From contig JBAZUE010000002.1 in the NCBI GenBank assembly GCA_041661605.1, positions 40,010-104,009 of the forward strand: a stretch of DNA of 64,000 nt, in the 5' to 3' direction. How positions within the stretch are numbered: the first letter of the stretch is position 1; the number at the start of each line of letters is the position of its first letter. Of the stretch, positions 7,440-47,913 are shown piece by piece. The notes under the pieces were generated by a model. That model ran no database searches. It saw nothing but the letters and a program-made list of their open reading frames with translations, and was not told the origin of the DNA. The DNA comes from Candidatus Omnitrophota bacterium (GTDB taxonomy: Bacteria; Omnitrophota; Gorgyraeia; Gygaellales; Profunditerraquicolaceae). A program made the position numbers and the translations under genes.

Positions 7440-7576
7440 TAAATACAAAGCTTCTTTCTCCCCTTGTGCCGTCGACGGGCCAAAGTTTTACGCCCGGACT
7501 TAGTAGACATTTTCTTGAGGAAGCCCTGGCTTCTTTTCCCGACGATATTTGATGGCGTTGTTAAATTCTTTTTCAT
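7439..7576 (-). CDS. rpmH: 50S ribosomal protein L34
   Basis: My own translation: MKKNLTTPSNIVGKRSQGFLKKMSTKSGRKTLARRRHKGRKKLCI (45 aa) against the L34 consensus ...HGFRARM.TKNGR.VLARRRAKGRK.L; AAGGAG SD 8 nt upstream. Not in the supplied ORF track because it is shorter than the cutoff. Confidence 0.9.
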   Translation of the reverse strand: MKKNLTTPSNIVGKRSQGFLKKMSTKSGRKTLARRRHKGRKKLCI

Positions 7577-9254: not shown

Positions 9255-9398
9255 TCCCAAGGTTGTTGGACAAAATATTTTATTCTAACTTACTATAAAT
9301 ATATCGGGTTATATAGTTTTTAACAGAAACATAACCCCTTTAATACTACAACGATATTAAGTTTTTAAATATATATATAAATAGAAGGAGATTGAAGA

Positions 9399-10490: not shown

Positions 10491-10493
10491 TAG

Positions 10494-13225
<2,732 letters not shown>

Positions 13226-13226
13226 C

Positions 13227-14063
13227 ATGGAAATAATGACGCCGGGAAAATATAAGAAAAGCATCCATCCAGTTGCCATTTTTAAGGAGGCCTGGGGCAT
13301 CTGCAGGAATAATTTAGGAAAATTAGGAGCTATCTATTTTATTTTTAACTTACCGATTATTATTTTTTACTTGACCCCTGTGGCAAGCAAACTACAGGAT
13401 CAGAAACCAAACCTTCAGATGTTTCTCGGGTTTTTTATTCCGGCCTTAATAATCAGCATTTGGTGCCATATTTCTTTATTGTTGGGGGTTAAAAAGGCGG
13501 CTGATCTTGAGGTTTACACAATCGGTCAAAGCATAAAGCAAACAAAAACATTCTTTCTTAAATATTTTGGCACAGTTCTGGTCGTTTTTTTATTTTTGAT
13601 GGGCATGATAATATTGGGGGGTTTATCTGCCGCAATAATTTTACCTTTATTATTGAAAGTTAACAAAATACTGGCTGCGCTGGTTTGTCTTATTTTGGTA
13701 ATCGCACTTATTGTTTTCTTAGCCTATTTTATGATTCTTTGGTCTCTTGCCACAACGGCGTGCGTTCTTGAAAATCTTCGTCCAATTACTGCTTTGAAAA
13801 AAAGCTCATCTTTAATTAAGGACTATGTGCTGGCATCTGCAGGGACTTATTGTTTGATTATACTTGTATATATTGCCTGCCTGCTTCCTTTTATTATTAT
13901 AGGAACATTCCTGGGTCTTGGTAATTATCCCGACCTGGCTAACCGGGTGGGTACAATATACAGCATGTTTATCAATATTGTCTTGGTGCCGTTTTGGTCT
14001 GCGGTCGCAGTAATATTGTATAAAAAATTAAAAGAGGTCTTGGAAAGTCATGTATACGCGTAA
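13227..14063 (+). CDS. hypothetical polytopic membrane protein inserted between gyrB and gyrA
   Basis: 278 aa with about 6 hydrophobic helices and no catalytic motif that I recognise; overlaps the gyrA start by 14 nt. Confidence 0.5.
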
Positions 14064-16482
14064 CGAAAAGATAATACCGGTTTACATCGAAGATGAGGTA
14101 AAAGATTCTTATTTGAATTATGCGATGAGCGTAATCGTTGGCCGCGCCCTGCCTGATGTGCGCGATGGCTTAAAGCCGGTTCATCGCAGGATCCTTTATG
14201 CGATGCAGGAACTTAATCTTGAACACTCCAAGCCTTATAAAAAATGCGCACGCATAGTCGGTGAAACTATGGGTAAGTACCATCCGCATGGAGACATGGC
14301 TATTTATGATACCCTGGTAAGAATGGCGCAGGATTTCACCTTGCGTTATCCTTTAGTCGATGGCCAGGGGAACTTTGGTTCAGTTGACGGAGATGCTGCC
14401 GCAGCTATGCGTTATACCGAAGCCCGGCTTGCCGCAATTTCTGATGAATTGCTCGGGGATATTGAAAAGGATACGGTTGTTTTTGGACCTAATTTCGATT
14501 CTTCTTTAAAAGAGCCTTTGCTGTTGCCAGCCAGCCTGCCTAATCTTTTAGTCAATGGCTCAAGCGGAATTGCCGTAGGCATGGCCACGAATATACCGCC
14601 GCATAATTTAAATGAAGTATGTGATGCGATTGTCTATCTTATCGATAATCCCGATGCAGAAATTAAAGACCTCATGCGTTATATAAAAGGTCCGGATTTT
14701 CCTACCGGAGGATTAATCTGTGGAAAATCCGGGATTAAAGATGCATATATGACAGGAAGAGGCAAGCTTTTGGTGCGCGCCAAAGCAACTGTAGAGCATC
14801 AGAAGAACGGCAAAGACCTGATTATTTTTACCGAGATTCCTTATCAGGTACAGAAATCCGGTGTTATCGAAGCTATTGCAGCTTTAGTTGATGATAAGAA
14901 AATCGAAGGTATATCTGATATACGCGATGAATCGGATAAAGAAGGCATGCGCATTGTGATTGAGCTTAAGCGCGATATTGAACCGCAGATTATTCTAAAC
15001 CAGCTTTTTAAACACACCCAGCTGGAAAATACATTTGGGATTATTATGCTGGCGTTGGTGGATAATCGGCCTAAGGTTTTGAATTTGCGCCAGGTATTGG
15101 ATTGTTATATTGAGCATCGCAAAGTCGTTATCCGCAGGCGTACGCAATTTGAATTAGATAAGGCTTTAAGGCGCGCGCATATTTTAGAAGGATTGAAAAT
15201 CGCGCTTAAATTTATAGACCGGATCATCAAAGTTATTAAGACCTCCAAGAGTGTGGAGAGCGCCAAGGTAAACCTGATTAAGGAGTTCGGGCTTTCCGAG
15301 ATTCAGTCTCAGGCGATTCTTGAGATGCAGTTGCAGCGCCTGACTGCACTTGAACGTGATAAAATTGATGCAGAATATGAAGAACTTTTAAAGAAAATTG
15401 AATTATGCCGGGCGATTTTAGCTTCACAGAAAAAGATCGAAGCCATTATCAAAGAAGAGCTTGAAAACTTAAAGAAAAAGTATGGAGACCAGCGGCGCAC
15501 GGATATTGTAGGGGAAGCAGAAGAGCTGGAGGTCGAAGATTTAATTGCTGAAGAAGACGTGGTGGTAACAATCAGCCACGGAGGTTATATTAAGCGTTTG
15601 CCGGTAAGTTCCTATCGTAAACAAAAACGCGGAGGCACGGGAGCAACGGGCGCGGAGCTTAAGGAAGAGGATTTTAGCGAGCACCTTTTTGTTGCCTCAA
15701 CCAAAGACTATCTGCTTATTTTTACCGATAAAGGCCAGGTGCACTGGTTGAAGGTCTATGAAATACCTCAGGCCAGCCGTATTTCTAAAGGAAAGGCAAT
15801 TGTTAACCTTGTGCAAATGGAGCAGGCAGCTAAGGTTAGTTCAACTATACCGGTAAAGGAATTTTCCCCGGATAAATATTTAGTGATGGTTACTAAGATG
15901 GGCCAAGTCAAAAAAACCAAGCTTGAGGCATACGGCAACCCGCGTAAGGGCGGTATTATCGGGATCACCCTGGATAAAGACGATGTTTTAATTGGAGTAG
16001 AGATGACCGATGGGAAACAAGAGTTGCTTATCGGGACTAAACAGGGTAAGGCAATAAGATTTTCCGAGGAAAAGGTACGCGATATGGGCAGGGGCGCCCA
16101 GGGCGTACGTGCTATATCTTTGGTAAAAAAAGATGAAGTTATCGATATGGTGGTTCCGCAAAAGTCATCTACTATACTTACAGTCACAGCTTTAGGTTTT
16201 GCAAAACGCACCACCATTGATGAATATCGATTGACCAGCCGTGGTGGCAAGGGTGTAATCAATATCAGGGTTACGGAGAAAAACGGTGAAGCCGTAAATT
16301 TAAAATCCGTCAATGATAAGGATGAGCTTATGGTCATTACCCAAAACGGAATATTCTTACGTTGTGCAATAAAGGATATCCGCGAAACCGGCCGTTCATC
16401 CCAAGGTGTGCGGTTAATCAAACTACAGGATAAAGACCGGGTTTCTTGTGTTGCTCCGGTCATTGCCGAAGAAGAAGAGTAA
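14050..16482 (+). CDS. gyrA: DNA gyrase subunit A
   Basis: Active-site region [11 protein letters not shown] and C-terminal beta-pinwheel repeats. Confidence 0.95.
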
Positions 16483-19354: not shown

Positions 19355-22300
19355 ATGAAGACAAAATCATCAAGAAGTTTTAAAATCATTGCTATTATTA
19401 TATCCTTTTTACTTGTTTTTGAGCAATCCGGGTTTGCTCAGGTTGCCGGAGAGCTGGATATTTCAAGGCACTTCTTTGCTCTGCAAAATAGCTTCTCCCA
19501 GGAAAGATTCCGCCCACTGCACTTAAGATACCTTGCCTATGATCCGGGAGCCAATAACTTCAATCTGCTTTTAGATAAAGGAGATTTTGTGAAGGGGCTG
19601 TCTCCAAAGGGGGCCGTTCCCGAACAGGAGCTCAAGAATCAAACTAAGGAACTTTTAAATTATTTTTTTATCGGTATATCCCTGCCCAACGAATCGTTCT
19701 GGGTAAATTTAAGGCCAGATGCAGAAGATAATATTATAGATAGTGAATTGGCTGAAACGGATGTAGGAAAGATTCTTTTAGAAGCAGACCTGCAGCTTAA
19801 AAAAGATACAGCCAATTTTACCTCTCCTCAGGCTCCAGAAGGAAAAGACTACTGGGATAAGCTCTACAAGAAGGCAGAAGAGCTATATGGGGATGAAAAC
19901 ATAACTATACCCACGCTAACCCGGCCTTGGATTGTGCCGGATGAAATCATTATCAGAGAGAGCTCTGACAATGCCTATATCTACAAAGCAACGCTCAAAG
20001 TTATGCTTGAGCAGGATTACCTTAAGAATTCATCTACATATAGTTTTCAGGATCAGCGATCCAAAACCTTGAATGAATACTCATCTCAGCTCATCAGAGA
20101 AACTATTATCCCCAAGTTAACCAAAGAAATAAATTCTTCCAAAAGATACGCTCCTTTAAGGCAGGTTTATTACTCGCTTATCCTCGCGCAATGGTTTAAG
20201 CAGAAATTCTATGGCAAATCAGGCTTATATTCTTATCTCATAGACAGGCATAAGCTGGATGGTTTAACTTCTGAAACTCCTTGGTCTAAAACAACTTATT
20301 TTAACTCTTACAGGACTTCTTTTCAGCAGGGAGAATATAATATTAAGGAGCCGCGTTACACTCCCTATGGCCAGACTATCAGGAGTTATATGAGCGGGGG
20401 GTTGGATTTAGGGCAAATAGTATCTTCTGCGATTATACAAGGAGTTGTGCAGGGCAATAAAGATTATGGACCCGGGTCGTTAATTTCTAAACATGGATTA
20501 GGCTTCCATTTTTCAGGTGGCACTGTAAGTAATCCTTTTGGGCTGAAAGTAGATGTAGTTTTGCCTATCGATACAGATATACCAAGAGCGATTGGACAGC
20601 TACCTGTTGTTGGCTCTCCGCTTTCCGGTAATAGCCCTTTATTACAAAAGCAGGCTTCTTCTAGATCGTTGATTTCAAAAAATAATGAAACTAATTTTTT
20701 ATCCCGCGCCTTGAAAAATTTAAGCGCGCTAGCAGGGGCAGTGTTTGTATCCGGAGGCAGATTTAAAAGAGGCACGTTAGAGCGTATACTTAACGGCCAA
20801 GGAATTAATCTTAAAATCGATGTTTCAATCGGGGATATCGCGGATGATTTTATGGAACTGTCTGCTTTTACTGTATTTTTAATTCCCAAAAAAATACTAA
20901 AGGAGTGTGTGAGTAGTTTGGAATTTGGCGCAAATCCTTCAGGCGCTTACACAGATGCTGATGAACCGGGTTTGTACTCCAATGAAGACAAAAGAGTTTA
21001 TATATATCAACGGTCATTCGCTTTCTGGGATGCTTACTTGTTGGCAAGGATAATTTTACATGAGGTAGGCCATGGATTCGAGGGCGGTTTTTCCGAAGAA
21101 GACGCGGGTAAGATAAAAGCGGCGTATTCACTTATCAGGCAGAAAATTTCAAATGGCTATAAGGATTATTCCCTGTATCTTAAACATGATGACAATATTT
21201 TAAGCCTAGATAACAGGAAGGCAATTGTAACATATACCGATAAGCCGGACTCGTCGCAATTTATAGCCGAGTTTTTTAGGGAGTATATTTTAAACGGTGA
21301 GGAATTAAGGGATAAGATAGGAAGCCAGAAAGACAGCGAAGTTAAAGAGGCTTTGGCCACAATCTATAGTATTTATAAGAAACGGTTCAATAGGGAATAT
21401 TATCCAAGAGACGTAAAAAGCCTGCGAGGCATACTGGAGAGAATCCCAGAGACAGTTGGAAAGCATATCGCCAGAGATTATAAGCAATTTAGCGAATTTA
21501 GGGGAGTCGCGGGAATCTTTTATTTGCGCTACGGCTTAACGCTAGATGAATATAGCGCATTGGCTGAAAAAGAAGGGCAGGATGTTGCCCTCGAGTCTCT
21601 TTATAAAACAATAGTTAGCGGTCTTGCGAGTAAAACACAGGTTGAGTTTGAGCAATGGAAACTAAAATTGGCAGCGACCAAACAGGCGCTATATGACAAA
21701 CTTATTTCAGTGCTTCATGATTATGCGCAGGCAATTACGAGTATGCACAGCGGTGATATTGATGATGCGGGATTGCAAAGTATATTACAAGATTTTAGGC
21801 GAGTGTTATTAGAAATTAAAACTCAATCTAGCCCAAAGAGTAATGAATATATTCTCGCTACTGAATACGCGCCCATTGTGTTTAACGTATCGCTTTCCGC
21901 ACTAAGCCAAGAATCGCGCTTGCCATCTCTTGATGATATTTTATCAAAACAGTATCAATCTGCTGGGTCTTCGCTGGAAAGGGGGTTTCGGGATTTACTC
22001 GGTGATTATTATTGGCAAGAGCTGGAACGCCTACAGGTTCAAGGATTTAATGCAAATGACCTTAACGTATCCCTGATGTCTTCGGATAAAGAATCCGCCG
22101 AAACAATTATCAAAGTATTTAGAAAACTGGACATTAATGCGGTATTCCATGCGATAAAAAATGACCCTAAAAGTTTTAATCTTTTGCTTAGAAAGATGTT
22201 GGGCTCAGACAAATTTATTCAATATTTAAAAAACACGCTGGAGTCTTTAGATAGAGACAAGTATATCCTTAATAATGCAGAGCGCTTTAACCAATACATG

Positions 22301-25300: not shown

Positions 25301-28300
25301 CCTCTTTTTAATAAGCTGGACCAAAACTCGGTCCCAGAAGAATTCCCGATTGTTTCTGTCGTTGACAACGGATTACAATTGCCGGATTCTGATAAATTAT
25401 GCCTTCAGGATAAAACAACCGCCAGCCGATTAAAAAAAGAAGGCATAGAGTTTCTTTCCGGGGAATTGCTGGGCAGTAATATGTTCCTTAAGACTCTTAA
25501 GGCAGAGTGTGCTAAAGAGGATTCAGATTTGAAAAGATTCTTAAAACAGCATTTTGTATATGCTATGTCCCCGTCTTTGCTTTGGCAAGGAGAAACAAAT
25601 AATTCGTCGATAAAATATGTCCAGGAGATGCTGGGGGATAATATTATAAAGAAGTATCCGCAGACAGCCAAAGCTTTTATCCCGCTGATACAAAGTTTAT
25701 TCCAAAAATTGCCCGCCCGCCAAGGCATTAATTTCTTTGAAAGCGTGACAGGAGGGACGAGCTGCGGGAATACGCGCAGGGCTTTAAGCGGAACCGTTCC
25801 TTTATCTAAAATGCTCGTTTACGTTTATCAATTGAATTCAGCCATGGAGGGGGTTTATTTAAAAACAAATAAAAATCCTGAAGCGCTGGGGGCATTTATA
25901 GATTTAGGGTTTGACCCGCCGTTATATAGCTCTGTTGAGGCAATCAGTTACGCGCTTGAGCTTTTACTCGCGCAGTGGAAGAATGTCGGTTTGAAAGAGG
26001 GCGCCTCAATGTTTTTTGAGCTGGGCCTAAGGCAGGCATTAGAAAGGACATCTGATTCGCCTTATAGGCAATATATATTCCGTTTCGCTGCCCTTAAAGA
26101 AAGTAATTGGTTCGCGCGGATAACGGATGATTTTTCATCCATCGATAATAATTTAACGAGTGAAGAATGGTTTGGTTTTGCAGCGCGCGAAAAAGAATTT
26201 TCTGAATTTATCGATATACTGGCCGGGAATGGTTATAAATTCTCGCGGTTTGACGCAAGAGAATTATTAATGTTGAGCAGCAAAGAAGGGATGAAGGATT
26301 TTGTCGCAGATTTGATTTCATACGGTTATAGGTTTAAAAAAGAACACATTACTGCCTTGTTAGAGATGTTTGGCCGCCGGGAAGAAATTATTAATAAGGT
26401 AAAAGAGATTAAGACAGCTTGTCCCGAATTTACGTATTATATTTTTGATGACGCGACTAGGCTGTCTTATGAGCCAATTAATGTCCTAGCGGATTTTTTA
26501 AAGCGCAATCGCCGCGCGGCGGTTAATATGGTAAACAATCTCGAAACCGCTCTTACGTATATGAATCCTGAAGCCCTTCTTCAAGCGGAAAAAATCAGGG
26601 AAGTTTGCAAGGCTTTCAATTCCCCTGCTTTTCTCATAAGCAGCTTTCTTAGCGGCTCGCTTAACGGCCTGTTGTCAAAATTCACGGGAGAGGATGATTT
26701 TATGCGTTTTGCATTAACCGCGGATGTTATCGAAAAAAACTTTAAAAAAGCATTCATCGCGTTCTTAAGCGGTTATAAGCAAGGCACTCAAAGTCAATTT
26801 GACATATTGATGGAAATATTCCTTTCCAGTATTAGTGATGTGGAGCGGTCTTCAAAGATTGCCGACATCATTGGAAACTGGTTTTCCGCCGCGGATACAA
26901 CCTTTTCTTTGCCCAGGGATATTAATGCAGCAATGCAAAGTATCTCCTCCGGAAATATGGATAATCGTAACCCAGTGCATGTATTTGCCAGTTATTTGGC
27001 CATAAGCAAGGCATTACAGCAAGAGGGAATGCAGCGCGGCGTTACTTATAAAGACGTTTTAGGATTGGCTGAGAAGCGGGCCAATAGAAAAGAGGGATTT
27101 GAGGGCATCCCGCAAGAGCATATGCGTAATATAGAAGGGGTGGTATATGAAGCGGTTATCATCCGGAATAAGCTTTTGGAAATAGAGCGCGCCGGAAAAA
27201 AGCAAATAGTGGTTGCCAATTTGTCTTACGGAGGAGTGGCGGTTACGCCAATCACCGAACAGAAAAACGGCCAGGCGCATATTGTGGGTACGCAAATCCC
27301 TGTATGGTATACAAAAGTCGGCTCTACCGAGGCGCACAACAATGAATACGTGCTGGTTTACGATTTATTCACTCCGGAGCAAATAAAGGTTTTGATTGAA
27401 GAAAAACCGTTTGTCTCGGTGGTTGACGGGAGTACTTCTGTAGCTGATTCCGACAGGAGTTCTCCGCACATACCTGATGCTTTTAAGGGATACCGTAATT
27501 ATTTTATTGTTTTAAACTTCGCGCTGAGTGAATCATTTAACCCGAAGGATTTTGATGTAAATGAAGAATTCGTTAAGAGTTTACTGGCTACTGATGAGGC
27601 CAAGGAACTTATCCGTAAGATACGGTCTATAGCTGTTAAACCGCGTGTGCCCAACGCGTATAAATTCGGGTTTTCTTATGAGCGCAAAGCGGATTCGGAA
27701 AAAGAAGAGTTTTTATATTTGCGGGAGGGGAAAAAAGAAGCTGCTAAAGCAACTAAATTAAATGTAGATGAAATTATAAAGCAACAAAACCCCTTCTGTA
27801 TTTTCATACAGTCCTGTATTCATCCTAATGACGTTGACAAAAAGTTGATGCCCGAAGAATACAGGGCAGGGTATTATGATGATAGAGGCCACTTTAAAGA
27901 ATTCTACCTTGATTATAAAGACGGTTACGGCGTTGTGATTTCCAGGCGTTACGCTGACGCGGCAAGGGAATTCTTCATGCAATTCATGTCGCGAGATGAA
28001 GCTGACTCCGCCGGTTCGTCGGTTGAGCAAAACAAGGAAAGCGGTATTGATTTATCCAGAAGGAAAGGAATATTAATTTCATTAGCCACTGTTTTGACTC
28101 TAAAGATATTAGGGCCGTCAAAGGCGTTGGCAGAACTCCTGGGTTCTGATGAAATATATTATTTGCACTTAGCGAACAGCGAACCTAAAAATGCCGTATT
28201 AGACTTTAAAAAATATAAGGCGCAGCCTTTTGCAAAAAATGTTTTGAAAGCGGCCATAAATAAAAATGCGGATGTGGTATTAGAGCACGCGGAGGTTTTT

Positions 28301-31300
28301 ATCAATGAGACTTATGCGCAGGAACTATTTGAGCTCGCAACCCAAACCTGGCCGCAGTCTATATTACGCCACGCATACCAGATTATTAAGCAGCCATACG
28401 CGCAGGGGATTATTGAAATTGCGGCCAGTAAGTACCCGACGGGAGCTTTGGAATACTCTTTTAATTACGCAAAACAGCCGTACGCGCAGAAGATCATTGA
28501 AACCGCGGCCAAAAGCGAGCCCGTTGCAGCGTTGAAATTCGCGAAAGCTTACATAGAAGAGTCATACGCGAAGGGCATACTCGAGCAAGCAGCTAAGAAA
28601 AATTACCTGGCAACTTTAGAATACTCCCGGAATTATTTTCGAAAAGAGTATATGCGGCCAATTATAGAGCAGTGTGCTAGAAAGAGCGCTTGGGGTGCCT
28701 TGAGATTTGCCTCCGGTTATCTGAATATGCCCGGAGCCAGGCAATTAATTGAAGCAGCGGCAGAATTAAGTCCGGATACGGCTTTGCGTTATTCATTTGA
28801 GTATATGGAAGCGCCGTATGCAAAGGATATTATTATAAAGTCGGCGTTACAAGACCCGGCGGCGGCAATAATAAATACGGGAGGGGTTGGGTGGGTATTG
28901 GAAGAAAAGAGAAAAGATATTCCAGAGATAGATATTATTTTAAGGATAGCAGCAAGCGAATATCGCGGCAAGCAAGAAAGAATAGGAGCGCTGCTTGATA
29001 TGATTATGAATGATATTGCCACTGGCACTGAAGCAGGCAGGGCAATGTATAAAGCAAATAAGATAAGCGAAAATGATAATGAATTCTTTAAGGAGCTTAT
29101 GAAGATAAAAACTAATAAGTCCTCTAGGGGCGTAGCAAGCGTTGACCGGTTTTTAAAACGCCTATCTTCGATCTTAATAAGAGATATGAATGATATGCAT
29201 GATTTAACAGCGGAAAGAAGATTCAGCGCGTTGAGCGATTATGATGCGTCCATGCTTTATACTATGATAGTTTACGGAGAAGATGAGGTCTATACCTCTA
29301 CCTTCAACGGGATCTTCAATATACTCATTAAAAAGATGAAGGGAAATAATATTTCCGGAGAAAAATTATTAGAAATGGTCGGTAAAAATAAATTCCGGGT
29401 GTTTATAAAGCTTACTGCGGCATTTAAACGCTTGAACGAATTTTGGGATATTTTGGAGGCAAAGAATAAAAAAGATGAGCTGATAAAAGAATTTGTCCAG
29501 GGTTTAGCCGGGATAAGAATTGACAACGAGCGATTATCCCAGGCAATAGCGGTAGCGGACACCTTCAGCGTGATTAACGGCGGGTATCAACAGGTTATTT
29601 TACGCGAGGCCATTGAAGAATATAAGAAAATGGAGACCGCAGGCAATAAAGAAGGCGTGAGGATTTATGGGATTTTAATAAGTATTTTCGGCAGGCAGCT
29701 GTCCATAGAAGAGCCGTGGTTTCAGCAGATGTATCAGAATTATCCTGTGCCGGATTTAACGGCGATTGACGGCTCGCAGCTATTTGATCCTAACGGAGCG
29801 CAGGCTAATACGCAGGTGCACTTTTTTTATCATGACCCTTACGGTAAGAATTCTTTTGCTAATTTTAAAAAACTATTTAACAAAAACGAAATTAAAGAAT
29901 CCCCGGACAAAAGTTTTATTGTTATCGCGCGGCAAAGGGCGGACAAAAAAATCATAATATATGCCAATAATCCCTATACAGACGCTGTCAAAGGTCAGAT
30001 GCAGATTGATAAGGCATTGAAAGAACGGGGAATAGAGCCTCAAGTAGTTGTCCATCGCGGCCACAGTTTTCATCTTTCAGATACGATAGAAAGGATAACG
30101 GCTAAGGCCAAGATAGTTTTTCTGGGGGCTTGCGGCGGTTACAATTATATCGTTGATGTGTTGGAGAGGGCGCCATTGGCGCATATTATTTCAACAAAAG
30201 GGACGGGCAAAAACGACGTTAACAATCCGCTCCTTGATATGTTAAATAATGAGCTTCTTTCGGGAAAAGGCATTCAATGGGAGGGCTTCTGGGGAAAAGC
30301 AAAAAAGAGGTTGGGTAATACTAAGGATTTCTTGGATTACGTGCCCCCGCACCGTAATTTGGGCGTGTTATTTCTTAAGACATACTATAATGTTGCGGAG
30401 AATGTTTCTAAAACAATCCCGCAGCCGCGAAACCAAAGCTTTCTCCGGGAAATTATTGACGGCCTGACCATGGAAGCAATTTTACCAATAACAGTATTTA
30501 ATATGGCAATTAATAAAATAGCCGACCGTAGCCCAATGGACAGAAGGGAATTTTTTGGATTAGGGAAGAAAACGAGTCAATCCGGCTCCGCTGATTCATC
30601 TATATCCAGAGAAGTAATGGCTGGGTCTTCATTGCGAAATCCTCTACCCGCAGCCCCGGCATCCGAGTTACAAGAAGGCCAGGAAAATCAAAACGGAATG
30701 GATCGCAGGACGTTCTTAGGTGCCCTTGGCGGCCTTGCCGGGCTAACTTTTCTTCTCGGCTTGTCTGATTCAGGGAATGCGGCAGGGATGCCGCAAGAGA
30801 ATGTCCAGCCTGAAGAAAGCGCGCAAAAGGCCGTTGATTGGGACAAGGCAAGAGGATTTATCATCGATAAACTTGCTGAAAAATACCCCGAAAAGAAGCA
30901 GGCTCAAGATATTAAAGTGGCTTTCGGCGAATATGAAAAAGATAAAAGCAAGGCTTACCGGCAGATAAATAAACTGTTAAACAGCATGGCGAAAGAAATG
31001 GATAAGGAGCAGAGAATCGGCTTGAACAGCAACGGTTGGTATACGGTTTATTTCATTTATATTGACGGTCTGTATGAGGAGTTCGGGCATAAAATATTAT
31101 TTCCTTTTGGCAGAAGGTTTGCATTCCTGGATTCAAAAAATAACCAGGGAACAAGAAAAGTGATGGAGCAGGTGCTCGAGGAAGAAGCGGCTACCGTGAA
31201 AAAAGTGATAGGTACCTTGTTCGGAGGGCTGAGTTTACTCGGCGCGGGAAAGTTTGTTTACGATAAAATAATTAAACCCTTCTTTTCCAGGCGATTTACG

Positions 31301-34300
31301 CGCACGCTTATGGATGAGCTGCGGACAATAAATAATGTCGTATTTAAAGACGATGGAATTGAAGCGGGAATTGAGGTGTATACCCAATCCGTGAAGATCG
31401 TAATGAATACATCCGCTGAAAGCGTAAAAATCTACCGGTTACAAAATAGCCAAGAAAAAATAACGCATGATCAGCGAGATTCTCACCGCTATTATACAAA
31501 TTATGGCTGGCAAATAGAACGGGCTATTGAGGATTATATCTTGGATAAGCATGATAAGGATATGCTTTTAAGTTTTATGCCCGTTAAATTAAGGGATAAC
31601 GAGTATTATGGATACATAACTAATAAATTAAAGTTAGAATCGTTATTAAAAGGGATAGTTAAAATAATAAGTGATTTTAGAGAATACGAGTACCGTGATT
31701 TGGCAGAAATAATTGCTTTATTGCAAAAAGAAGAGCGCGTTAATCAACAACTGCTCATTAATTGGTTGATGGCGGCGCAAAAACAGGGGCGGTCTTTGCG
31801 CTCGGCGCTTGATAAATTACAAGAGTTGTTAAAACTGCTGCAGGGTGAATCTTCGGAAGCCGTGGCCGCAGGAATAAGCCTACTTATTAAACATCCTTAT
31901 TTAAGGGTATCGTATTTACGCGTTTGGCTAGAAGATGCCGCAGCTCGCGGGCAAGACAAGGCAAAGCTTGTCGGCGACCTGAATAATTATTATACCATAA
32001 CAAGGGCATTGTTAAGGGCAGGCAATTATGAAAATGAAATAGCCGGAATGATACAATCTGTATTGACAGATAATATTGAAATCCGCAGGCATAGTTTATT
32101 AAGCTGGCTCAAGGCTGTGAAGCTGCATGGCAAAGACGCAAAAATGTTTTTATCGGAATTAAAGAAATTAGCCTTAATTAATAAAAGATTTATTGAGGAG
32201 TTGGAAACCAGGCGGCCCCGTTCCGGGTACGGGTATGAATATAAATGGTTCGAGGATACCCTTTTATCGCAAAGCGGAAAGCTGCTTTTGGCTTTAGGGG
32301 GAATATATGATTCCGGATATCTTAATAAGCTGCTTCCGTTATATACAGGCGGATATCTTTCTAAGTCTTTGGGTGAAAAAGGGTATATATATCTTGAAAG
32401 AATATCCAGCATTCTGGAAGAGAATATTAATCTCATTGATTCTGGAAGTTTGCTTGAGCTTAAGAAGAGAGAAATTGGCAGTAATGATCGACTGCAGTCT
32501 TTGATATTGGCAAAAGTTTCGGTTGACCCTTCTTTTATCCAGTCGATCACAGATAATATAAAAAAAGAAGAGAATCCGCAAGTTAATAATAATTTATTAA
32601 GATTATTATTCAGCCTTGAAGGCGCGGATGAAGCAATCCACGATATATTAATGAACATTAACCCTGAAGAAATCGCGCGAAAAACGATAAATAACGAATA
32701 TAACTGGCAGTGGAACTTATTAGAGCTATGGCCGGAGAATGAAAAAAGTATAGCCAGGATTATGAAAAAATACCCTGAGTTGCTTTCAAAAGTGTTCGCC
32801 ATAGCCAAGCCTCTAGTGTCAACTTATGAAGACAGGCCGCCGTATTACAAGAGGCATTTCCCGCTTATTATATCCGCCGCGTTAAGCAATTCGCGGGAAC
32901 TGAGTGTTTCTGCGGATGAATTCAGGGATTTATTTAAAATACTTAATAATTGGCGTTACCGTCCGGAATGTTTAGGGGCGATTTCCTACGCCGTGCTTAA
33001 CAATCCTTCTCTTTTTCGGGAACTACTTACAGAAGATCATATATTTGATGCCGATTATTTGCTTGGAGTAAAAATAATTCCAATTGAGCTGCGCATGAAG
33101 CTGCAAAGGCAGTTTCTTGAGAGTTTTAAGGATGCCTTTCGTGAATTAAGGCCGGAAGAGTCTTCCAGGATGCTGGCGGGCATGATCAAGAATATAGTTA
33201 TTTATGGGCGCGTAGAAGCGAAAGATTTGGACCTCTTAGCGGTTTTTCCCGAGCGACAGGCAGTAGCGAATACGGTATTTTTCTGCAGAGAGCTGCGAAA
33301 AATAGGCTATGATTTCAATAAATATGATTATTTTACTTTCGGAGATTTTCGTTTTATTCATGAATTAGCGCAGCAACCGGATATAACGGCATTTTTGCGC
33401 AAATTAAGGAGCTACGGATTCGTCTTCCAAGACGCTTATTGGGGGTATCATTCCAATGACAGAATCGGGATTTTAAGCGATATATTCAATAAAAGAGAGG
33501 AGTACTTTTCAAAAATTGAAGCGATACGCTCCGTGCTCCCGGATTTTAAATACCAGCCTTTACTAGAAGGCCTTAGCCCGGAATCGGTACTGGCTTCTTT
33601 ATTGGAACGTTATCCCAGTCAGGCGGTTAGCATGATGAATGACCCGGAAGGCGTGCTTAAGGCGATTAATCCGGAAGCTGCCCCTTACGCGAAAAAAATA
33701 AGAGAAATTTGTACTGTCTTTAATTTTCCCGTTTTCCTTGTAAGCGGATTTATCAGCGGTTCGCTGAATAATTTATTACCGGGATTAACCACGCCAGATG
33801 ATTTTATCTATTCAGTATTTATCGAAAATTCCGTTGAACAGGAATTTAAGGATAAATTCACGGCATTTTTATCCGGTTACACAAACGGCACCCAGGGCCA
33901 ATTCAATATGTTGATACAGGCATTCCGTTCCGGCCTTAATGGTTCGCGGCAGTCTTCACAGGTTGCCGAAGTCATAGGGGGCTGGTTTTGTAGCGCATAC
34001 ACGGTTTTTTCATTACCCAAGGATATTAGTATGGCCATGCAAAATATATCTTCCGGTAATATGGATAATAGCGACCCGGTGTATGTGCTCGCAAATTACC
34101 TGGCTATTAGCAAGGCGTTGCAAAGGGAAGGAATGCAGCGTAGCGTTACATATAAAGATGTTTTAAGTTTAATTGAAAAACGGGCTGGCGGCAGTGGGGC
34201 GTTCGAGGATATCCCTGAAGAGCATATGCGCAATATAGAAGGGCTGGTGTATGAGGCTGTTATTATTTGGAATAAGCTTTTGGAAACAGAGCGCGCCGGA

Positions 34301-37300
34301 AAAAAGCAAATAGTAGTCGCAAATTTGTCTTACGGAGGGGTAGCGGTTACCCCAATCACCGAAGAGAGAAGCGGTAAGGCTTATGTGGTGGGTACTCAGA
34401 TACCGGTTTGGCATACGAAAGTCGGCTCTACTCCCGCGCACAATAATGAATACGTACTGGTTAATGATTTATTCACTCCAGAACAAATAAAGTATTTGGC
34501 CGAAGAAATGCCGTTTGTTTCGGTGGTAGACGGCAGCACTTCCATAGCCGCATCCGACAGGAGCTCTCCGCACATACCCGATGCTTTTAAAGGATACCGT
34601 AACTATTTTATCGTTTTAAACCACGCGCTGGGTGAATCATTTGACCCGAAAGATTTCGACGTTGATGAGGAATTCGTGAAAGGCTTGCTGGCCACCGTTG
34701 AAGCCCAGGAACTTATTAAAAAGATACAGGCTATGTCAATCAAACCGCGTGCCCCTAACGCTTATAAATTCGGTTTTTCTTATGAGCGTAAAGCGGATTC
34801 CCAAAAAGGGGAATTTTTGTATCTGCGCGTGGGTAAAAAAGAAGCTACTGAAGCAAAAAAGCTGAATATCGGTGAAGCTCTAAAACAAGATAATCCTTTC
34901 TGTATGTTCCTTCAATCCTGCGTTCACCCTGATGACGTTGACAAAAAGTTGATGCCCGAAGAATACAAAGCGGGCTATTATGATGATACGAACCACTTTA
35001 AAGAATTCTACCTTGATTATGAAGACGGTTACGGAGTCGTGCTTTCCAAGCGTTACGCCTATGCGGCAAGAGAGCTATTCAGGAGATTTATGCTGCAAAA
35101 AGGAATTAATGTTATGTCCGGCCGTTTTACTACTGATGCCATTCGCCCGATTGATACATTGGTTCTGGACTTAGACGGCACGCTTACCGAAGCCATTGGA
35201 GGGAATATAGAAAACGGGACGGCCGATATTATTAATTATCTATTAAAAAAAGGCGTAAGGATAATTATCATTACTGATGATATTTTGGAGAATGTTGAAA
35301 AAAGAATCGCAAAATTGGACAAATCCGCTAACCTGGTTGTTCTTACCGATGGTGGGGCAAGAGGAGATGAAGGAATGTTTGAGCAATACAACGCACAAAA
35401 TATAATAAGCCCTGATTTAAGAAGCAGGGTCTTAGGTATAGCTCAGGCGAATTTCCCATTCGGCTCGTGGAAAGAAGGAAAGAAAGACTCTCTTTACCGG
35501 ATTCAAATCACGGATATCCAGGAGAGAACCGATTTTATCAAGCGTTTTCAGGATTTACTTGTTCAGGAAGGTATTGAGGCTAAAGTATATAAAGTTGGCA
35601 GGAATTCGGCGCGCGTTACCATTGCGCACAAAGAAGCGGCCTTCGCCGAAGCAATAAAAATGTTTGGTATTGATGTGTCTAAATCGCTGATTATCGCGGA
35701 TTCAGCCCGGTCTTACCGTATTGACCGTAAACTTTTGACTGCTTTTCCGGAAAGCGTAAGCGTTAATATAGGTAAATTCTCCCCTAGTATCGAGAGCGAG
35801 AATCAGAGAATTATTCAATATGCCGGGCAAGGTACAAGCGCAACAAAAATGCTGCTATCGAGTATAGCGTTTAGGGGCGGGCTGCCGCAGCATCTACTGC
35901 TTTCTTCTATGCAAAACCAGCCTTTGGAATATATGGAGGCCGCCAGTTCGCTTACTCAAAGCGCTTCACTAAGTCTATCCAATCTTTTTGAACCGCGGCA
36001 GCTGTCTTCCGCTGGTTCGGCGCTGGAGGAGGTAAATCTTCAAAAGATCTCGGCGGCGCTGGGGAAAATGGAAAAACAGGCTGTTGACGAAAAAGAAATA
36101 TACGGTTTAGCCGCGAGGTTGAAGGAAGCGTTTAAATGGGATGATTACTTCGGGAATTTTACCCCTGAGATGTGGATTGAGCTTTTGCGTTGTAAGGGAG
36201 TTAAAGAATTAAAGGGCTTAGATATAAAGGATGGAATACTAATAAAACAGGGTGATACCGTAAATGACGAACAGGCAATGTTCCTTATTGAAAAAGGAGG
36301 GGTGAGGGTTAGCGAAGATGCGCATGGAATTTGGATCGCGGATTTAGAGGAAGGGAATTATGTCGGAGAAATAGGCGCGGGCTCTTCAAATAGGCTGCGT
36401 ACAGCCACAGTGCGGATAAAAGAGGGGGCGCCGGAAACGAAATTTTTGGCAATACCTATGAGTGTATTTAGTGCCTTGGGGCTATCCAGGGTATTTTCGG
36501 AAATAAGCAGGCAACGCAGCAACCGTCTGAAAAGCAGAGAGAGATTAGCCGAGAAGGATTACACTCGTATATTGAAAAAATATCCGGATACAGAGTATGA
36601 TGAAGATAGCCCTGTAACAAAAGCTTATAACCTGGCATTAAAAATTATCAATCCAAAAGAAAACCCATTATCCGTGGACGTTACTTACCATAATCCTTAC
36701 CATTGGAATGAGTTGCTTGATTTTATCGATATTGTCCTACAGGGTATGGGGGATAATCTAAAGAATAAAAATAGGAAAATTATATTTATGTTGGCAAGGG
36801 TTGCGGCATATTTGCACGACATAGGGTATTATTTATCTAATGACCAAGGGAAGTTTACCGTTGTTGGACACGAAGACAGAAGCAAGGAATTTGTGCGTAA
36901 CAATATGAAAGAGTTAGGGCTTAGCAGCCGCTATGTCAATGCAATTCAGTTTATGATAGAGCATACTAAGCTTAAAATAGGAGAGGAGTTTGAAAATAAA
37001 TTGGGTTTAATAAACCAGGCGTTAGCGGAAATACACAATGGTAAATTATCTGATAAAACAGGGGTTTTTCTTAAAGAAATTTTGCCTGATTTAGACTTGA
37101 ATCTGGATAGTGATCTTGATTTTGCTAACGATGTTTTAATCGCTGCTAAGGCTCTTGCCGTAGCAGACCTGTATGCGGCAACCGTTGATATGGTTCCGTT
37201 TTTGTGGCTTGAATTTACTTTGGAAGGTTCTCCGGCAGGCAAGACGACTATGTTAGAACAAATAGCGGCCTCCCGCGATTTTCATAAAGGCGTTGTTGAA

Positions 37301-40300
37301 CCGCAACGGTTAAAATTGCTTTTAGAGGGAGGTTTCGGGTTAGAAAAGTTAATAATGGATAGTGGCTCGTTAGAGCGGTTAAAGAACGCCAGAGAGAAAA
37401 ATATCGGTATAATGCAGCAGTATGCCGAAGCGGTAAAACAGATAAAGGCAAGTGATACTGCCGAATCAGTTAAAAAAACAGCTGAAACGAATTTAATAAA
37501 TCTTATTAACGGCCTTAATGATGATATGGTTGGTCCGCTTAAAGATGAGTTGCTGGCTGAAGTAAAAACACTTGTTTTAAAAAGCAGCGCTGTTGGCGCG
37601 GGGTCGGCTTTACAAAATCCGGAAACAGGATTAATCGGCAGTAAAACACTTGGAAATTATAAATTTGTTCTGCAAGGCCAGGGCAAAGAAGGATACTTGT
37701 TAAAAATTTTTGGCAAAAGGGGTGTCGCAGGAGAAATAAAATTTAGATTACATGATCTTCCCGATGGCAGAAAAGGAATCTTTGTAGAAAATGTATTTGC
37801 TAACGATACTTATCGCGAAGATTTTAGGAAAGATTTTGAAAAAGGGATATATTCAAATATGCTAAAAGAGATTATAGAAATAGGGGAACAGTATTCCCGT
37901 GATATAAACAAAGTAACCGAAATAACCGGAGCGATAAATAATATAGAGACTCTGCAGGGTCTTTATGGCGCTATTGCCGGCAGTCGTCCAACAGAAGAGC
38001 GAGAAGAGGTTGAAAGGCTAAGTGGTATAGAGAAAAAGAATTATTATGAACATACAGAACCGCTGATTAAGATGTTAAAGAAAGCCATAATTGAAGAGGT
38101 GGGTAGCGAAGAAGGCAGGATGGAGCTTGATAGGAAACTTCCGGATACCCTTTTAGTAAAAGCCAGGTCAGGTGGGGGGTTCTCGGAAAATCACCGTATG
38201 CGGGTAGAGAGAGATCAGATAATCCTTATATCTAACACGCCGGTTCATTCCGCAGGCTCTTCGCTTGAGATGCGTCCAGAAGAAGCCGCTAAATTAATAA
38301 GGGAAGCGGTGCAGGAAAACTATGAAAAATGGGGCCTTTTATCCGAGCGTTTAAAAACAGCAAGGCGTATTTTGGTCCGGGTTCCCGGACGCGATAACCG
38401 TGGCGGCCACGAATTCCCATTAGGGGAGATAGCTGCTACTCTGCCCATATTAATCAAAACGCTGATTATTTCTGGAGAAAGCATCGAAAAGATAATAGTG
38501 CAATGTGATTCTTATCCGGAATTGGTAGAAGCGCTAGGAGAAAATAGGGTCAAATTAGCTGAGCCTAGTAAGACAACCGACGAATTAAGGTCTATTTATT
38601 CCCCGGATTTGGTTATTGATTTTGACACGGTAGCATTGGGTGAGGAGATTCCGGAAAACACAGTAAAGTTCCCAGTGGCAAAATTATGGATGTCTTTAGA
38701 TCGTCATAGGGAAATGCGTGAAATTTTAACTTCAGCAGGATTAAGCATTCCTAAAGAAGGCGAAGCAATTATCAGGAGAGAAAGGGAAAGGGATGGGCAG
38801 ACGACCATATTTGTAAATCCGCATAGTGATAGCAATAAGAATGATAATGTAGATTTGTGGGTAGGGTTAATACAGGAACTTGTTGCAAGGGGGTATAAAG
38901 TAGTACTTAATTCGGGTAAAGAGGCAGGAAAAGACCAGGCACATTCAAAAAATATATTAGAGAAGCTTAGAGAAGAAGTGAGATTGGGGGATGTGAAAGA
39001 ATTTAAAGGGAGTATTACGGATCTTTTAAATACCTTCTCAAAGAAAATAGACGGAGTAGTAACTATAGATAGCGGCATATTCCACGTAGTGCACAATTTG
39101 TATTCCTTACCTGCAGTCGTTTTTACTACGTCGAACACATTAGGTTGGATTCCGCAGGAAAAGGAGGAGTTATTATTTAAGAGGGTTCAATACTCAGATT
39201 TGAAAGATTCTTCTACTGCAGTAGAGTTATTGCGGAGTTTATTAGAGAGAGAAGAAAAAGCAGACGCCAGCTCGCCGGCTGCGCCGGGAGATTCTGTTGT
39301 GCCTCAAGATTCGACTTCGAACCTTAACGTAGTATTATTGTCGAAAATCGAAGATCATATGAGAACGGAATTAAAAAAAATAGATGATGCGATTGATAGG
39401 GAGATAGAGGGCATGCCCTTTGATGATAAACCGCACCGATTGTCCGACAAAATAATGGAACGTTACCGCCTCTTGTTTATCGAATTTTGCGAAATTGGCC
39501 GTGGCATACCGGAATTTGATCACCTATCATATTTAATGCAGGACGGAAAGTTTACTCCGGCAATGGCTATGAACGCATTGCAGGGATTATTCTTAAAAGA
39601 AAACAGGCTTTTGGTATTTTCTATTGGAAGAGATCCTGTTGATGGAAGAATTATAGAAAATATGCCCGCGCTTTCAGTGTTTAAGGTAAAAGAAACGCAA
39701 CTAGTTACAGAAGATATTATAGATAAGCATGTAGATGCATTGGCAATATTTGTTGATGGCTTGATTGTGCAAGATTACGTCACAAGGCGCCGTATGGGAT
39801 TTGAATCTTATCTAGCATTTGCCATACATGGGGTGACCATCGATGGAGCAATACCAGTTGTAGTAAATAAGGGAAGTATTGCTGCTGAACTTAAGCGTTA
39901 CTACGGAATGCGTTTAGAAATGGAAGCTACGGGTCAGCTTCCGGATTTCTATAGAAAGAATATTCCGCTTCTCAATGAGGCGTTGGCAAAACTTTTGATA
40001 AAACAGTGGCCTCAACCAAACAAAGATATCTCCGATTTTATTGCGAAGCATTTGGACGAATATATACGTAGAATTGTATTGCATGAATTAACGCATGTGC
40101 GTATAGCAGGCACGGATGATGATGAAATATTCGCGTATCTTGTTGAGATCGCGCAGACGCCTTATAGCTGGTTAAGGCTATTTGATGTCGTTTATAGTAT
40201 TAGTCCTCCAGTTAGAAGCACGTCGATCGAGCATGATTATGCCTCAAATAATTTTCTGCGTAACTTTATTCAGGGTATTTTCCAAAAGTACGAACCTGGT

Positions 40301-45884: not shown

Positions 45885-46343
45885 ATGCAGAAGAGAATAG
45901 TTTCGGTAATAGGAGGACATAATTGTACGAAGAAGGTGGAGCAAATAGCCTTTAATTTAGGCAAAAGTCTGGCTAAAGTGGTTGGTATTTTAGTTTCAGG
46001 CGGTTTACAGGGAACGATGAAGGCAGTTTGTTCTGGTTTTAAGGCTGGTGGAGGCTTAACTATAGGAATTATACCAAGTTATGATAAAAGCGACGCCAAT
46101 AAGTTTGTAGATGTGGTGATTCCTACGGGCTTAGGATTAGCCAGGAATGTGTTGGTTGTTAAATCCGCAGATGTAGTGGTGGCGCTTCCGGGTAAGGCAG
46201 GCACTCTTTCTGAGGTTGCCTATTGTTTACAGTTTGGTATTCCGGTAATCAGCTTAGACTCTTGGGATATCAAGACAGTTATTAAAGTCTCCACTGTCAA
46301 AGAAGCTGTCAGGCAGGTCAAGAGGATTTTAAGAAAGGACTGA
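45885..46343 (+). CDS. LOG-family / TIGR00725 Rossmann-fold nucleotide-binding protein
   Basis: 152 aa; GGG...GLM and PGG.GT..E motifs (VSGGLQGTM ... LPGKAGTLSEV). Confidence 0.6.
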   Translation: MQKRIVSVIGGHNCTKKVEQIAFNLGKSLAKVVGILVSGGLQGTMKAVCSGFKAGGGLTIGIIPSYDKSDANKFVDVVIPTGLGLARNVLVVKSADVVVALPGKAGTLSEVAYCLQFGIPVISLDSWDIKTVIKVSTVKEAVRQVKRILRKD

Positions 46344-46344: not shown

Positions 46345-47913
46345 ATGCAGAAGAAGGTGATTATTTTAGGGGGTGGTCCAAATAGGATCGGCCAGGGTAT
46401 CGAGTTTGATTATTGCTGCTGTCATGCCGCCTATGCGCTTAAAGAGGAAGGAATATGCAGTATTATGATAAACTGCAATCCGGAAACAGTTTCTACTGAT
46501 TATGATACCTCTGACCGGCTTTATTTTGAACCACTTACATTCGAAGATATTATGAATATCATTGAACTGGAAAAACCAATAGGCGTGATTGTGCAATTCG
46601 GCGGACAAACTCCGCTTAATCTGGCAGTAGCTTTACGGGAGGCGGGGGTAAATATTTTAGGGACCAGTTCAGAAAATATTGATATTGCGGAGGATCGCAA
46701 ACGTTTCAAGCACATGATTGATAAATTGGGCCTGTTGCAGCCGAATAGCGGCACGGTGTTTACCTTTGAAGAGGCGCAGAAAGTAGCCAGCAATATCGGT
46801 TATCCTGTATTGGTCAGGCCGTCGTATGTCTTGGGCGGCCGGGCAATGGAGATTGTTTATGATGCAGAATTATTAGAAAGATTTATTAAGGAGGCAGCTG
46901 AGGTTTCCGGTGAACATCCTATATTGATAGATAAATTCCTGGAGGATGCTATTGAAGTGGATGTGGATTTAATCGGAGACGGCGAGACTTTTGTTATCGG
47001 TGGAATTTTGGAGCACATTGAACAAGCAGGGGTACATTCAGGGGATGCGGCAATGTCTCTGCCTACTTACACTTTGTCTCCGGAGATCTTAAAAAAGATA
47101 AGAGAAGCTACTTACCGTTTAGCCAAAGAATTAAATATCGTTGGCTTGATGAATGTGCAATATGCGGTTAAGGATGCTAAGGTGTATATCCTGGAAGTTA
47201 ACCCCCGTGCTTCCCGTACCGTGCCTTTAGTCTCTAAGGTTATTGGAGTGCCTCTGGCAAAGTTGGCAACTAAGGTTATGTTGGGTAAGAAACTAAAGGA
47301 TTTAGGTTTTACTGAAGAGACCATCCCTCGGCACGTGGCAGTAAAAGAATCAGTTTTTCCTTTTAACCGTTTTCCAGGGGTAGATGTAATGTTGGGGCCG
47401 GAGATGAAATCTACCGGAGAGGTTATGGGGATTGATGCGGATTTTTCCAGCGCTTATATCAAAAGTCAGATTGCCGCCGGACAGAAGATTCCCAAGAAAG
47501 GCAATGTATTTATCTCTGTGCATGATCGGGACAAAAGAGACGTGATTCCTATTGCCAAGAAATTAAAAGAATTGGGGTTTAATATTTTTGCGTCTAGCGG
47601 CACAGCATCAGTCTTGGGGAAAAACAATATATCGGCTAAGGTACTGCCTAAGATCACCGAGGGCAGGCCGAATATCCTGGATTTGATGAAAGATGGTAAG
47701 ATCCAGATGGTTATTAATACTCCTTCAGGCAGGATACCCCGCCAGGATGAGGTAAAGATACGCTCGCAAGTAATCCTTTATAATATTCCCTATACCACTA
47801 CAATTTTTGGAGCGCAGGCAACGGTAAACGGGATTGAAATGTTTATGAAGAAAGATTTAAACGTGAAATCACTGCAGGAGTATCATAAGATTAAAGGAAG
47901 AAAAGTTAAATAG
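46345..47913 (+). CDS. carB: carbamoyl-phosphate synthase large subunit, C-terminal half only (second ATP-grasp plus MGS-like domain), a split CarB
   Basis: Begins VIILGGGPNRIGQGIEFDYCC.HA, which corresponds to about residue 555 of E. coli CarB; collinear to the end (MGS-like GT..L...GI). No N-terminal-half gene is present in this window. Confidence 0.88.
   Translation: MQKKVIILGGGPNRIGQGIEFDYCCCHAAYALKEEGICSIMINCNPETVSTDYDTSDRLYFEPLTFEDIMNIIELEKPIGVIVQFGGQTPLNLAVALREAGVNILGTSSENIDIAEDRKRFKHMIDKLGLLQPNSGTVFTFEEAQKVASNIGYPVLVRPSYVLGGRAMEIVYDAELLERFIKEAAEVSGEHPILIDKFLEDAIEVDVDLIGDGETFVIGGILEHIEQAGVHSGDAAMSLPTYTLSPEILKKIREATYRLAKELNIVGLMNVQYAVKDAKVYILEVNPRASRTVPLVSKVIGVPLAKLATKVMLGKKLKDLGFTEETIPRHVAVKESVFPFNRFPGVDVMLGPEMKSTGEVMGIDADFSSAYIKSQIAAGQKIPKKGNVFISVHDRDKRDVIPIAKKLKELGFNIFASSGTASVLGKNNISAKVLPKITEGRPNILDLMKDGKIQMVINTPSGRIPRQDEVKIRSQVILYNIPYTTTIFGAQATVNGIEMFMKKDLNVKSLQEYHKIKGRKVK

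Follow-up and report, generated by a model that had tools for sequence, protein, structure and literature searches.

How old is the direct repeat that lies inside a giant bacterial gene, and what does the repeated unit encode? The gene is an open reading frame (ORF) of 22,176 nucleotides (nt) on the forward strand (19355-41530), which encodes 7,391 amino acids (aa) and lies in the 64,000-nt stretch of DNA analysed here (contig JBAZUE010000002.1, positions 40,010 to 104,009; hereafter the window). We find that the repeat consists of two old, diverged paralogous copies, A and B, of a module of ~590 residues, both within this one giant protein. Each module is made up of a helical arm, occupying the upstream ~230 aa, and a ~355-aa alpha/beta core, and the core represents a domain family that is, as judged from sequence searches, previously undescribed and unannotated. 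The explanation that we favour, and hold to be probable, is that the repeat is a pair of paralogous arm-plus-core modules in a signal-peptide-bearing, multi-domain Omnitrophota protein, the core belonging to a family that is coupled to HAD phosphatases.

The two copies, located at 26474-27988 and 33578-35092 on the forward strand, align over 505 codons without a gap, with 74.3% nt and 69.9% aa identity, whereas random in-frame pairs of the same length from the giant gene show a mean identity of 27.0% and a maximum of 30.8%. The two collinear paralogous modules announced in the original prediction are thus present far beyond chance, and their similarity is not limited to low-complexity stretches. 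All of the peptide strings quoted there are found in the sequence, but the offset that its start coordinates imply, 7,105 nt, yields 30% nt and 8% aa identity, which is background; the correct register offset is 7,104 nt, or 3 x 2,368 codons. Likewise, the identities given there, 75-80% in aa and ~85% in nt, apply to the best stretches only and are too high for the copies as a whole. The two antisense ORFs that the original prediction called near-identical and attributed to the repeat do exist on the reverse strand (27059-27337, 92 aa, and 34169-34441, 90 aa); they visibly resemble each other and are trivial by-products of the repeat, not genes.

The homology between A and B reaches beyond the ungapped segment. 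Self-BLAST of the whole giant protein returned the identity match alone, and it was after the protein had been cut into chunks that a single strong internal paralogy became visible, between aa 2293-2878 and aa 4651-5246. Gapped homology thus extends upstream to aa 2293 and 4651 (nt 26231 and 33305), where identity is 28-42%. Conservation rises along the module, from ~30% aa identity (aa 2293-2378) through ~48-50% to 76-86% (aa 2529-2878), and 100-nt windows of the repeat show the same gradient, with nt identities of 0.56-0.66 at the 5' end and 0.74-0.88 across the last ~900 nt. Over the conserved core (aa 2529-2883) the copies are 78% identical in aa and 79.6% in nt, and the homology ends sharply at aa 2884/5252. 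On the forward strand, the helical arms map to 26231-26896 (A; aa 2293-2514, helical in the first AlphaFold2 (AF2) model) and 33305-34000 (B; aa 4651-4882), and the core domains to 26897-28006 (A; aa 2515-2884) and 34001-35110 (B; aa 4883-5252). The arms are old paralogues, with ~40% aa identity over aa 2293-2453 and saturated synonymous sites; they are conserved among close relatives only, whereas the core is what the whole family shares. No further diverged core copies were found in the giant protein with hmmsearch --max at E<=10. A repeat finder detected just one 300-nt piece at 66% identity, since the copies are too diverged for simple seed extension, which misses most of the repeat.

The family to which the core belongs emerged only by an exhaustive profile search of 1.84 billion cluster representatives; a word-indexed homologue search returned one relative, P0001, a protein of 786 aa with the module at its C terminus. 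The profile search yielded 186 protein clusters at E<=1e-3 (55 at E<=1e-30), and the ~355-aa domain that they share corresponds to aa ~2525-2880 and ~4893-5248 of the giant protein, exactly where A and B are most alike. The two copies score 1,024 and 1,032 bits against a module hidden Markov model (HMM) built from six sequences, both copies included, and they also pass E<=1e-5 against a core-only HMM. Neither the module copies nor the family members show a Pfam, NCBIfam or PADLOC match to the core, PDB sequences gave no match to either copy even with the family profiles, and a literature search on the conserved peptide motifs found no paper. The proteins of the family have a median length of 1,102 aa. 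The core occurs as the C-terminal domain of proteins of 600-1,400 aa, whose N-terminal regions are mostly unannotated (HEAT repeats precede the core in 2 of 42 scanned proteins), and it stands at the very C terminus in 66 of the 140 instances with a complete C-terminal end, that is, in 47%. It is also found embedded, sometimes twice, in very long proteins. Its duplication within a protein has occurred independently more than once: the pair in P0003 is 70% identical and its members are each other's nearest relatives, P0032 and P0034 have one older pair in common, and P0025 and P0031 carry distant pairs. Named sources of the core are Omnitrophota, Candidatus Auribacterota (MFC2149803.1), Candidatus Woesearchaeota (MBI5072466.1) and TARA 0.1-0.22 µm fractions, in all cases as 'hypothetical' proteins. 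Only three reference genomes encode relatives of the module, all of them metagenome-assembled genomes (MAGs) of Candidatus Omnitrophota.

The gene neighbourhoods of three stand-alone family members (L001/L002, L007 and L009) have nothing in common. In one of them (L007 1961-9779) the gene for P0113, a protein of 592 aa, lies directly downstream of Gabija-like genes (AAA_15/OLD-TOPRIM and a UvrD helicase) and a Shedu-like gene (SduA_C), a setting that amounts to a defence island and was not seen for the other two members. A role as an anti-phage defence protein was rejected despite this context, as searches of six family members with the PADLOC models gave no hits at E<=0.1.

What, then, has the family conserved? 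Its invariant or near-invariant residues are, in copy A, Y2547, E2599, N2622, S2624, Y2625, G2626, K2654, G2656, S2657, H2661, D2691, P2707, D2708, N2715, D2842 and D2843, with the equivalents Y4915, E4967, N4990, S5025, H5029, D5059, D5076, D5210 and D5211 in copy B. The whole motif set (Y, E, N-x-S-Y-G, K-x-G-S...H, D-G-[ST], P-D, N and D-D) is present in both copies, and each of them matches the identical 27 of the 32 columns that are conserved in at least 80% of the family. The idea of a conserved active or binding site of unknown fold, put forward in the original prediction, is plausible, but the residues named for it are not the right ones: the Cys and His positions of NPFC.F.QSC.HP, described there as invariant, vary freely in the wider family, P0001 having GPALVIMQSAIEP and other members T, A, S, V or N.

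The predicted structure of the core depended strongly on the depth of the alignment. With three sequences AF2 gave a predicted local distance difference test score (pLDDT) below 50, and with 42 sequences core A was modelled at pLDDT 88.9 and a predicted template modelling score (pTM) of 0.88. Four helices open the model, and an alpha/beta domain with about eleven strands comes after them; in it, N2622 ends the first strand, S2657 begins the helix after a strand and D2691 ends a strand. Ligand-binding and catalytic sites of alpha/beta folds are usually situated at strand ends and helix starts. We infer that the core is an enzyme or a ligand-binding domain and that the invariant E, N, S, D, P-D and D-D residues form its site. 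Foldseek found no significant neighbour of the core A model in the PDB (best E 0.07, TM-score <=0.17) and none in BFVD. Several known folds were considered and rejected. A type I phosphoribosyltransferase was suggested by the string 'VVDGSTS', and hhalign against the PyrR of the window gave a probability of 0.3%, with no phosphoribosyltransferase Pfam hit in 22 members at E<=10; the SIS fold was likewise rejected by hhalign. A von Willebrand A/MIDAS domain was suggested by the DxSxS pattern in 'DGSTS', which the larger branch of the family replaces by DGTxH, DGTYN and the like; there was no VWA Pfam hit, and the only VWFA entry in BFVD received a Foldseek probability of 0.01. We take 'GSTESH' to resemble the phosphohistidine loop of PEP-utilizers and 'VVDGT' the 'GGDGT' of NAD/DAG kinases, resemblances for which Pfam and Foldseek gave no support.

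A domain of HAD phosphatase type comes directly after core B (35150-35938, forward strand). It has a HAD-type motif I of the form hhhhDxDx[TV] at the end of the first strand (LVLDLDGTL, with D5272 and D5274), and candidate motifs II-IV can be picked out by eye in the translation as IIITDD, AHKEAA and IIADSARSYRID. Its profile scores lie below the cut-offs (Hydrolase_6, 14.1 bits against 27; HAD-SF-IIIA, 17.3 against 44.6), and since the domain at the homologous position of P0021 passes the Hydrolase_3 cut-off (24.4 bits against 20.9), we treat the one after copy B as a divergent HAD phosphatase. The coupling recurs in the family. Where more than 60 aa follow the core (74 instances), motif I in the form hhxDxD[GNS]T is found 17-35 aa past the core end in 32 (30 DxDGT and 2 DxDNT), among them copy B of the window, its orthologue on the syntenic contig L004, and L006; core B and its HAD align collinearly with the core+HAD units of L004, L006, P0004, P0007 and P0014. 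Pfam and NCBIfam HAD-IIB hits lie right behind the core in P0016 and P0021. According to NCBIfam, the HAD domain of P0021 is nearest to the phosphoglycolate phosphatase, SPP and Cof-type IIB families, with scores below their cut-offs, and a member of the P0038 cluster was named by its source a 'phosphoglycolate phosphatase-like HAD superfamily hydrolase'.

The history of the two copies can be traced by comparison with L004 (JAQUSM010000001.1, isolate STD1_97), which is syntenic with the window over the giant ORF, pyrR, pyrB and pyrC; the pyrB products are 98% identical in aa, and the proportion of synonymous differences (pS) is 0.26. Between cores A and B there are 0.96 synonymous substitutions per synonymous site (dS) and 0.12 non-synonymous substitutions per non-synonymous site (dN), a ratio (omega) of 0.13; between core B and its L004 counterpart (L004B) omega is 0.08. 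By these measures the duplication is old, with a core dS of ~1, and both copies are under purifying selection; both are probably functional, because of this selection and because they have kept the same 27 conserved positions. In the core, pS is 0.54 between A and B, roughly double the value for pyrB and pyrC in the two genomes (0.23-0.26), and between B and L004B it is equally high (0.60). Branch lengths in dN derived from the core distances are 0.09 for A, 0.03 for B and 0.06 for L004B. Copy A thus has a non-synonymous branch ~3 times as long as that of B, with 12 autapomorphies against 3. P0004, P0007, P0014 and L006 each contain a single core with a HAD behind it, an arrangement collinear with copy B. 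Copy B with its HAD is therefore the ancestral unit, and copy A is a lineage-specific extra copy without HAD.

The two parts of the module do not seem to share one history. L004 has kept arm A (aa 458-616, 81 bits), and at the position of core A (window aa 2454-2885) it has an unrelated cassette of 697 aa, after which the two proteins are collinear again from '...IDLSRRKGI' onward. The A-B pS is 0.7-1.0 up to aa ~2447 and ~0.5 beyond, and this step lies at the synteny breakpoint (2453/620), which argues that the core tract of A, from ~aa 2447, is younger than the paralogy of the arms; the pS between B and L004B is uniform across arm and core. These values suggest that the arms are an older paralogy and that a B-type core tract was later copied or converted into the A position, next to the older A arm. 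Such cassettes would be gained and lost between related genomes. Relative to its syntenic orthologue the giant gene is, in sequence terms, a recombination mosaic. When window 19355-41530 is compared with L004 2-18139, pS is ~0.1 over aa 5552-7038, below the pyrB/pyrC baseline, ~0.25 over aa 2986-3753, and 0.45-0.8 over aa 1951-2453 and 3853-5546; indels also occur at the level of whole cassettes, window aa ~875-1862 having no counterpart in the compared L004 stretch and aa 2177-2432 of L004 being extra. Similarly, the first ~360 aa of P0004 (4,375 aa), signal peptide included, are 87-89% identical to the window protein (19355-20434) and the middles differ in content, which in this pair of sequences amounts to a conserved N-terminal 'head' combined with variable cassettes.

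Could the repeat nevertheless be a recent duplication or an assembly artefact, and hence an active substrate for recombination, slippage or collapse, as the original prediction held? Because 7,104 nt is divisible by 3, an exchange between the copies, rare as it would be, would leave an in-frame chimera; the copies share in-register exact runs of 17-36 nt, and the gene as a whole shows recombination with relatives. Yet there are just five such runs of at least 17 nt, the nt divergence is 26% overall and 20% in the core, and the core dS of ~1 far exceeds the pS of the flanking pyrB and pyrC. The efficiency of RecA-mediated recombination depends on length and identity and is orders of magnitude lower at such divergence, which, along with the shortness of the exact runs, should make the copies a poor recombination substrate. 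Since the longest identical run is 36 nt, assembler k-mers longer than that separate the copies and the risk of collapse is low; a duplicated-contig artefact would be near-identical, and the divergence of the copies excludes the second one as an assembly duplication (read data were not part of the analysis). The recombination and collapse risk was therefore overstated, and we regard a recent or artefactual origin as very improbable. A closer contender, to which we assign somewhat less than an even chance, is that only the arms were anciently duplicated, a B-type core, maybe of another strain, having later served as the source of core A through gene conversion or the copying of a cassette, so that the similarity of the cores reflects concerted evolution. 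The coincidence of the synonymous step at ~aa 2447 with the L004 breakpoint, the presence in L004 of the A arm without the A core, and a mosaic divergence that implies frequent exchange all fit this scenario. However, the 60-codon windows are noisy and over aa 2507-2566 pS is back at 0.75-0.79, the synteny would be explained equally well if the L004 lineage had lost core A, and cores A, B and L004B form a trichotomy; moreover, a late core A refines the explanation that we favour, and is partly included in it, rather than being an alternative to it.

Whether the core acts as an enzyme is a separate matter. It might instead have a role in binding, adhesion or scaffolding, as part of a secreted surface protein that makes contact with a host or prey, the duplication adding a second binding site. 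Consistent with this, the giant protein bears an N-terminal Sec-type signal or anchor, MKTKSSRSFKIIAIIISFLLVFEQSGFAQ, by which we infer it to be exported or anchored; its sole strongly hydrophobic segment is aa 9-27 (mean Kyte-Doolittle >=1.7 over 19 residues), besides three weaker segments that resemble RR signals. No catalytic family was matched, and roles in adhesion or cell-wall attack have been proposed for Omnitrophota giant proteins (bioRxiv 10.1101/2023.11.21.568195). Against it, ~100 of the 126 Met-starting family representatives have no N-terminal hydrophobic segment, among them the majority of the 600-1,300-aa members in which the core is C-terminal. These short members are probably cytoplasmic, and the core would then function inside the cell as well as in exported proteins. 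Small, polar or acidic residues make up the invariant set (E, N, S, D, D, DD), with the N, the S and the first D at strand ends or helix starts of the AF2 model, as is typical of catalytic and phosphate-binding sites, and fusion to a HAD phosphatase through a fixed linker is typical of enzyme pairs. We therefore think a purely binding or structural role unlikely. There is perhaps an even chance that the core acts on a phosphorylated small molecule or sugar, by binding or transforming it, and passes product or substrate to the HAD phosphatase, and the chances are about as balanced that copy A acts without a HAD of its own as a second, diverging module for catalysis or binding. A bolder speculation, which we put forward with considerable doubt, is that the core is a new enzyme fold, unrelated to anything in PDB or Pfam, that serves as the upstream partner of the HAD domain; together the two would convert a phosphorylated metabolite or surface sugar in two steps not described before, secreted giant proteins such as the one studied here carrying one or two copies as effector or surface-remodelling modules in episymbiosis; the occurrence of the core in Omnitrophota, Auribacterota, Woesearchaeota (DPANN) and 0.1-0.22 µm marine fractions suggests ultra-small, host-dependent lineages.

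Several observations weigh against paralogous, HAD-coupled modules as set out above. Of the instances with downstream sequence, fewer than half have a HAD behind the core, and copy A has none. At a position where 89% of family members have His, A, B and L004B have Tyr, and where 85% have Trp they have Ser; the clade formed by these three may therefore have a different activity. The L004 contig has another 9.8 kb upstream of the compared stretch, and an A-like core could lie in the part of the gene found there. The parsimony-informative sites, 5 for B+L004B, 4 for A+L004B and 2 for A+B, make a trichotomy of the order of duplication and lineage split. Finally, a dS near 1 is noisy and close to saturation, and a mosaic gene has no single clock.

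The remainder of the giant protein has features of its own. A signal-peptide-like segment, SRRKGILISLATVLTLKILGPSKALA (28055-28132, forward strand; aa 2901-2926), begins 17 aa past core A, and its sequence is conserved at the same junction in L004; it may be the fossil N terminus of a once-separate protein or an internal membrane segment. Two other internal starts of signal-peptide-like or Tat-like appearance are MDRREFFGLG (30539-30570, aa 3729) and MDRRTFLGALGGLAGLTFLLGLS (30701-30790, aa 3783). These starts, the first of them so close behind core A, and the position of the core at the protein end in almost half of the family instances suggest that the giant ORF arose by fusion of once-separate secreted proteins, or that its product is processed at the internal signal-like sites. 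Just past the segment behind core A, at 28160-28600 (aa ~2937-3081), helical repeats of ~35-80 aa (YAQ.IIE.AA…P..AL.Y) constitute the only other internal self-similarity of the protein (E 1e-3). Two HExxH motifs, HEVGH at 21059-21073 (aa 569) and HELTH at 40082-40096 (aa 6910), are candidate zinc-metallopeptidase sites with no Pfam match. Past the HAD domain, at 36200-39100 (aa ~5629-6580), there are a weak match to CRP-like cyclic-nucleotide-binding domains (E 5e-4), an HD domain (PF01966, 24.6 bits, above the cut-off of 22) and a weak heptosyltransferase/GT9-like match, a content of cytoplasmic-type enzymes that is odd beside a signal peptide.

The window is a segment of a bacterial chromosome at the replication origin. 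The giant ORF is preceded by yidC, parA, parB (reverse strand), dnaA, dnaN, gyrB, gyrA, glmS and a TP_methylase gene, and followed by pyrR, pyrB, pyrC, a split carB, fpg, pyrK, pyrD, pyrF and a V/A-type ATPase; GC content is ~41%, and the sign of the GC skew switches near 6-8 kb. The restriction of module relatives among reference genomes to Omnitrophota MAGs, along with the synteny of L004, assigns the window to an Omnitrophota genome. In the origin region (5689-16482) an unannotated ORF of 278 aa (13227-14063) is wedged between gyrB and gyrA. Within the pyrimidine operon, carB (46345-47913) is a half-size gene of 522 aa, a split carbamoyl-phosphate synthase large subunit, and is preceded by a SLOG cluster4 (LDcluster4) gene (45885-46343).

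The repeat as such is ordinary, old internal domain duplications having been reported as the rule in long Omnitrophota proteins, and it poses little risk to assembly or gene stability. The value of the locus lies in the core domain, which is conserved, confidently modelled, found in 186 or more unannotated clusters, fused recurrently and through a fixed linker to HAD, and repeatedly duplicated independently; it offers a concrete and testable piece of the unannotated giant-protein content of host-dependent microbes. The comparison with the nearest MAG indicates in addition that these genes evolve by cassette swapping and mosaic recombination.

Among known systems, the core+HAD unit invites comparison with the trehalose-6-phosphate, mannosyl-3-phosphoglycerate and sucrose-phosphate synthase/phosphatases, bifunctional proteins in which a synthase is joined to a HAD-IIB phosphatase. 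As in those fusions, an upstream alpha/beta domain of ~350 aa is connected by a short linker to a DxDGT HAD. Yet the core has no sequence or Foldseek similarity to GT-A or GT-B glycosyltransferases, and half of the core family is without HAD; the likeness is one of architecture only and is not evidence of membership.

The giant protein also resembles the long Omnitrophota proteins described by West-Roberts et al. 2023 (bioRxiv 10.1101/2023.11.21.568195) and in a later catalogue (bioRxiv 10.64898/2026.06.07.730766). In that catalogue, 65% of the Pfam-positive Omnitrophota proteins of at least 10 thousand aa contain some Pfam domain two or more times, with repeats that are ancient at the nucleotide level, and HAD and HD are among the common content ('Module 1'). 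The window protein agrees with this group in phylum, signal peptide, multiplicity of domains, HAD and HD content, and a twice-present domain whose copies diverged anciently at the nucleotide level. It differs in that its 7,391 aa are too few both for the 2026 catalogue, which starts at 10 thousand aa, and for the West-Roberts 'Archaeovorin' type, with its threshold of 30,000 aa; in that no SecA_DEAD (PF07517), dockerin or C39 domain was detected and numerous transmembrane helices are lacking; and in that its gene adjoins oriC-proximal housekeeping genes, not a type II secretion system. Its repeated unit is not a Pfam family, and Pfam-based censuses of repeats would miss it. Finally, compared with variable surface and effector proteins that carry intragenic paralogous cassettes, the copies in the window are now too diverged for efficient conversion and are under purifying, not diversifying, selection, yet the gene shares with them both its mosaic divergence and the replacement of a whole cassette at the position of copy A.

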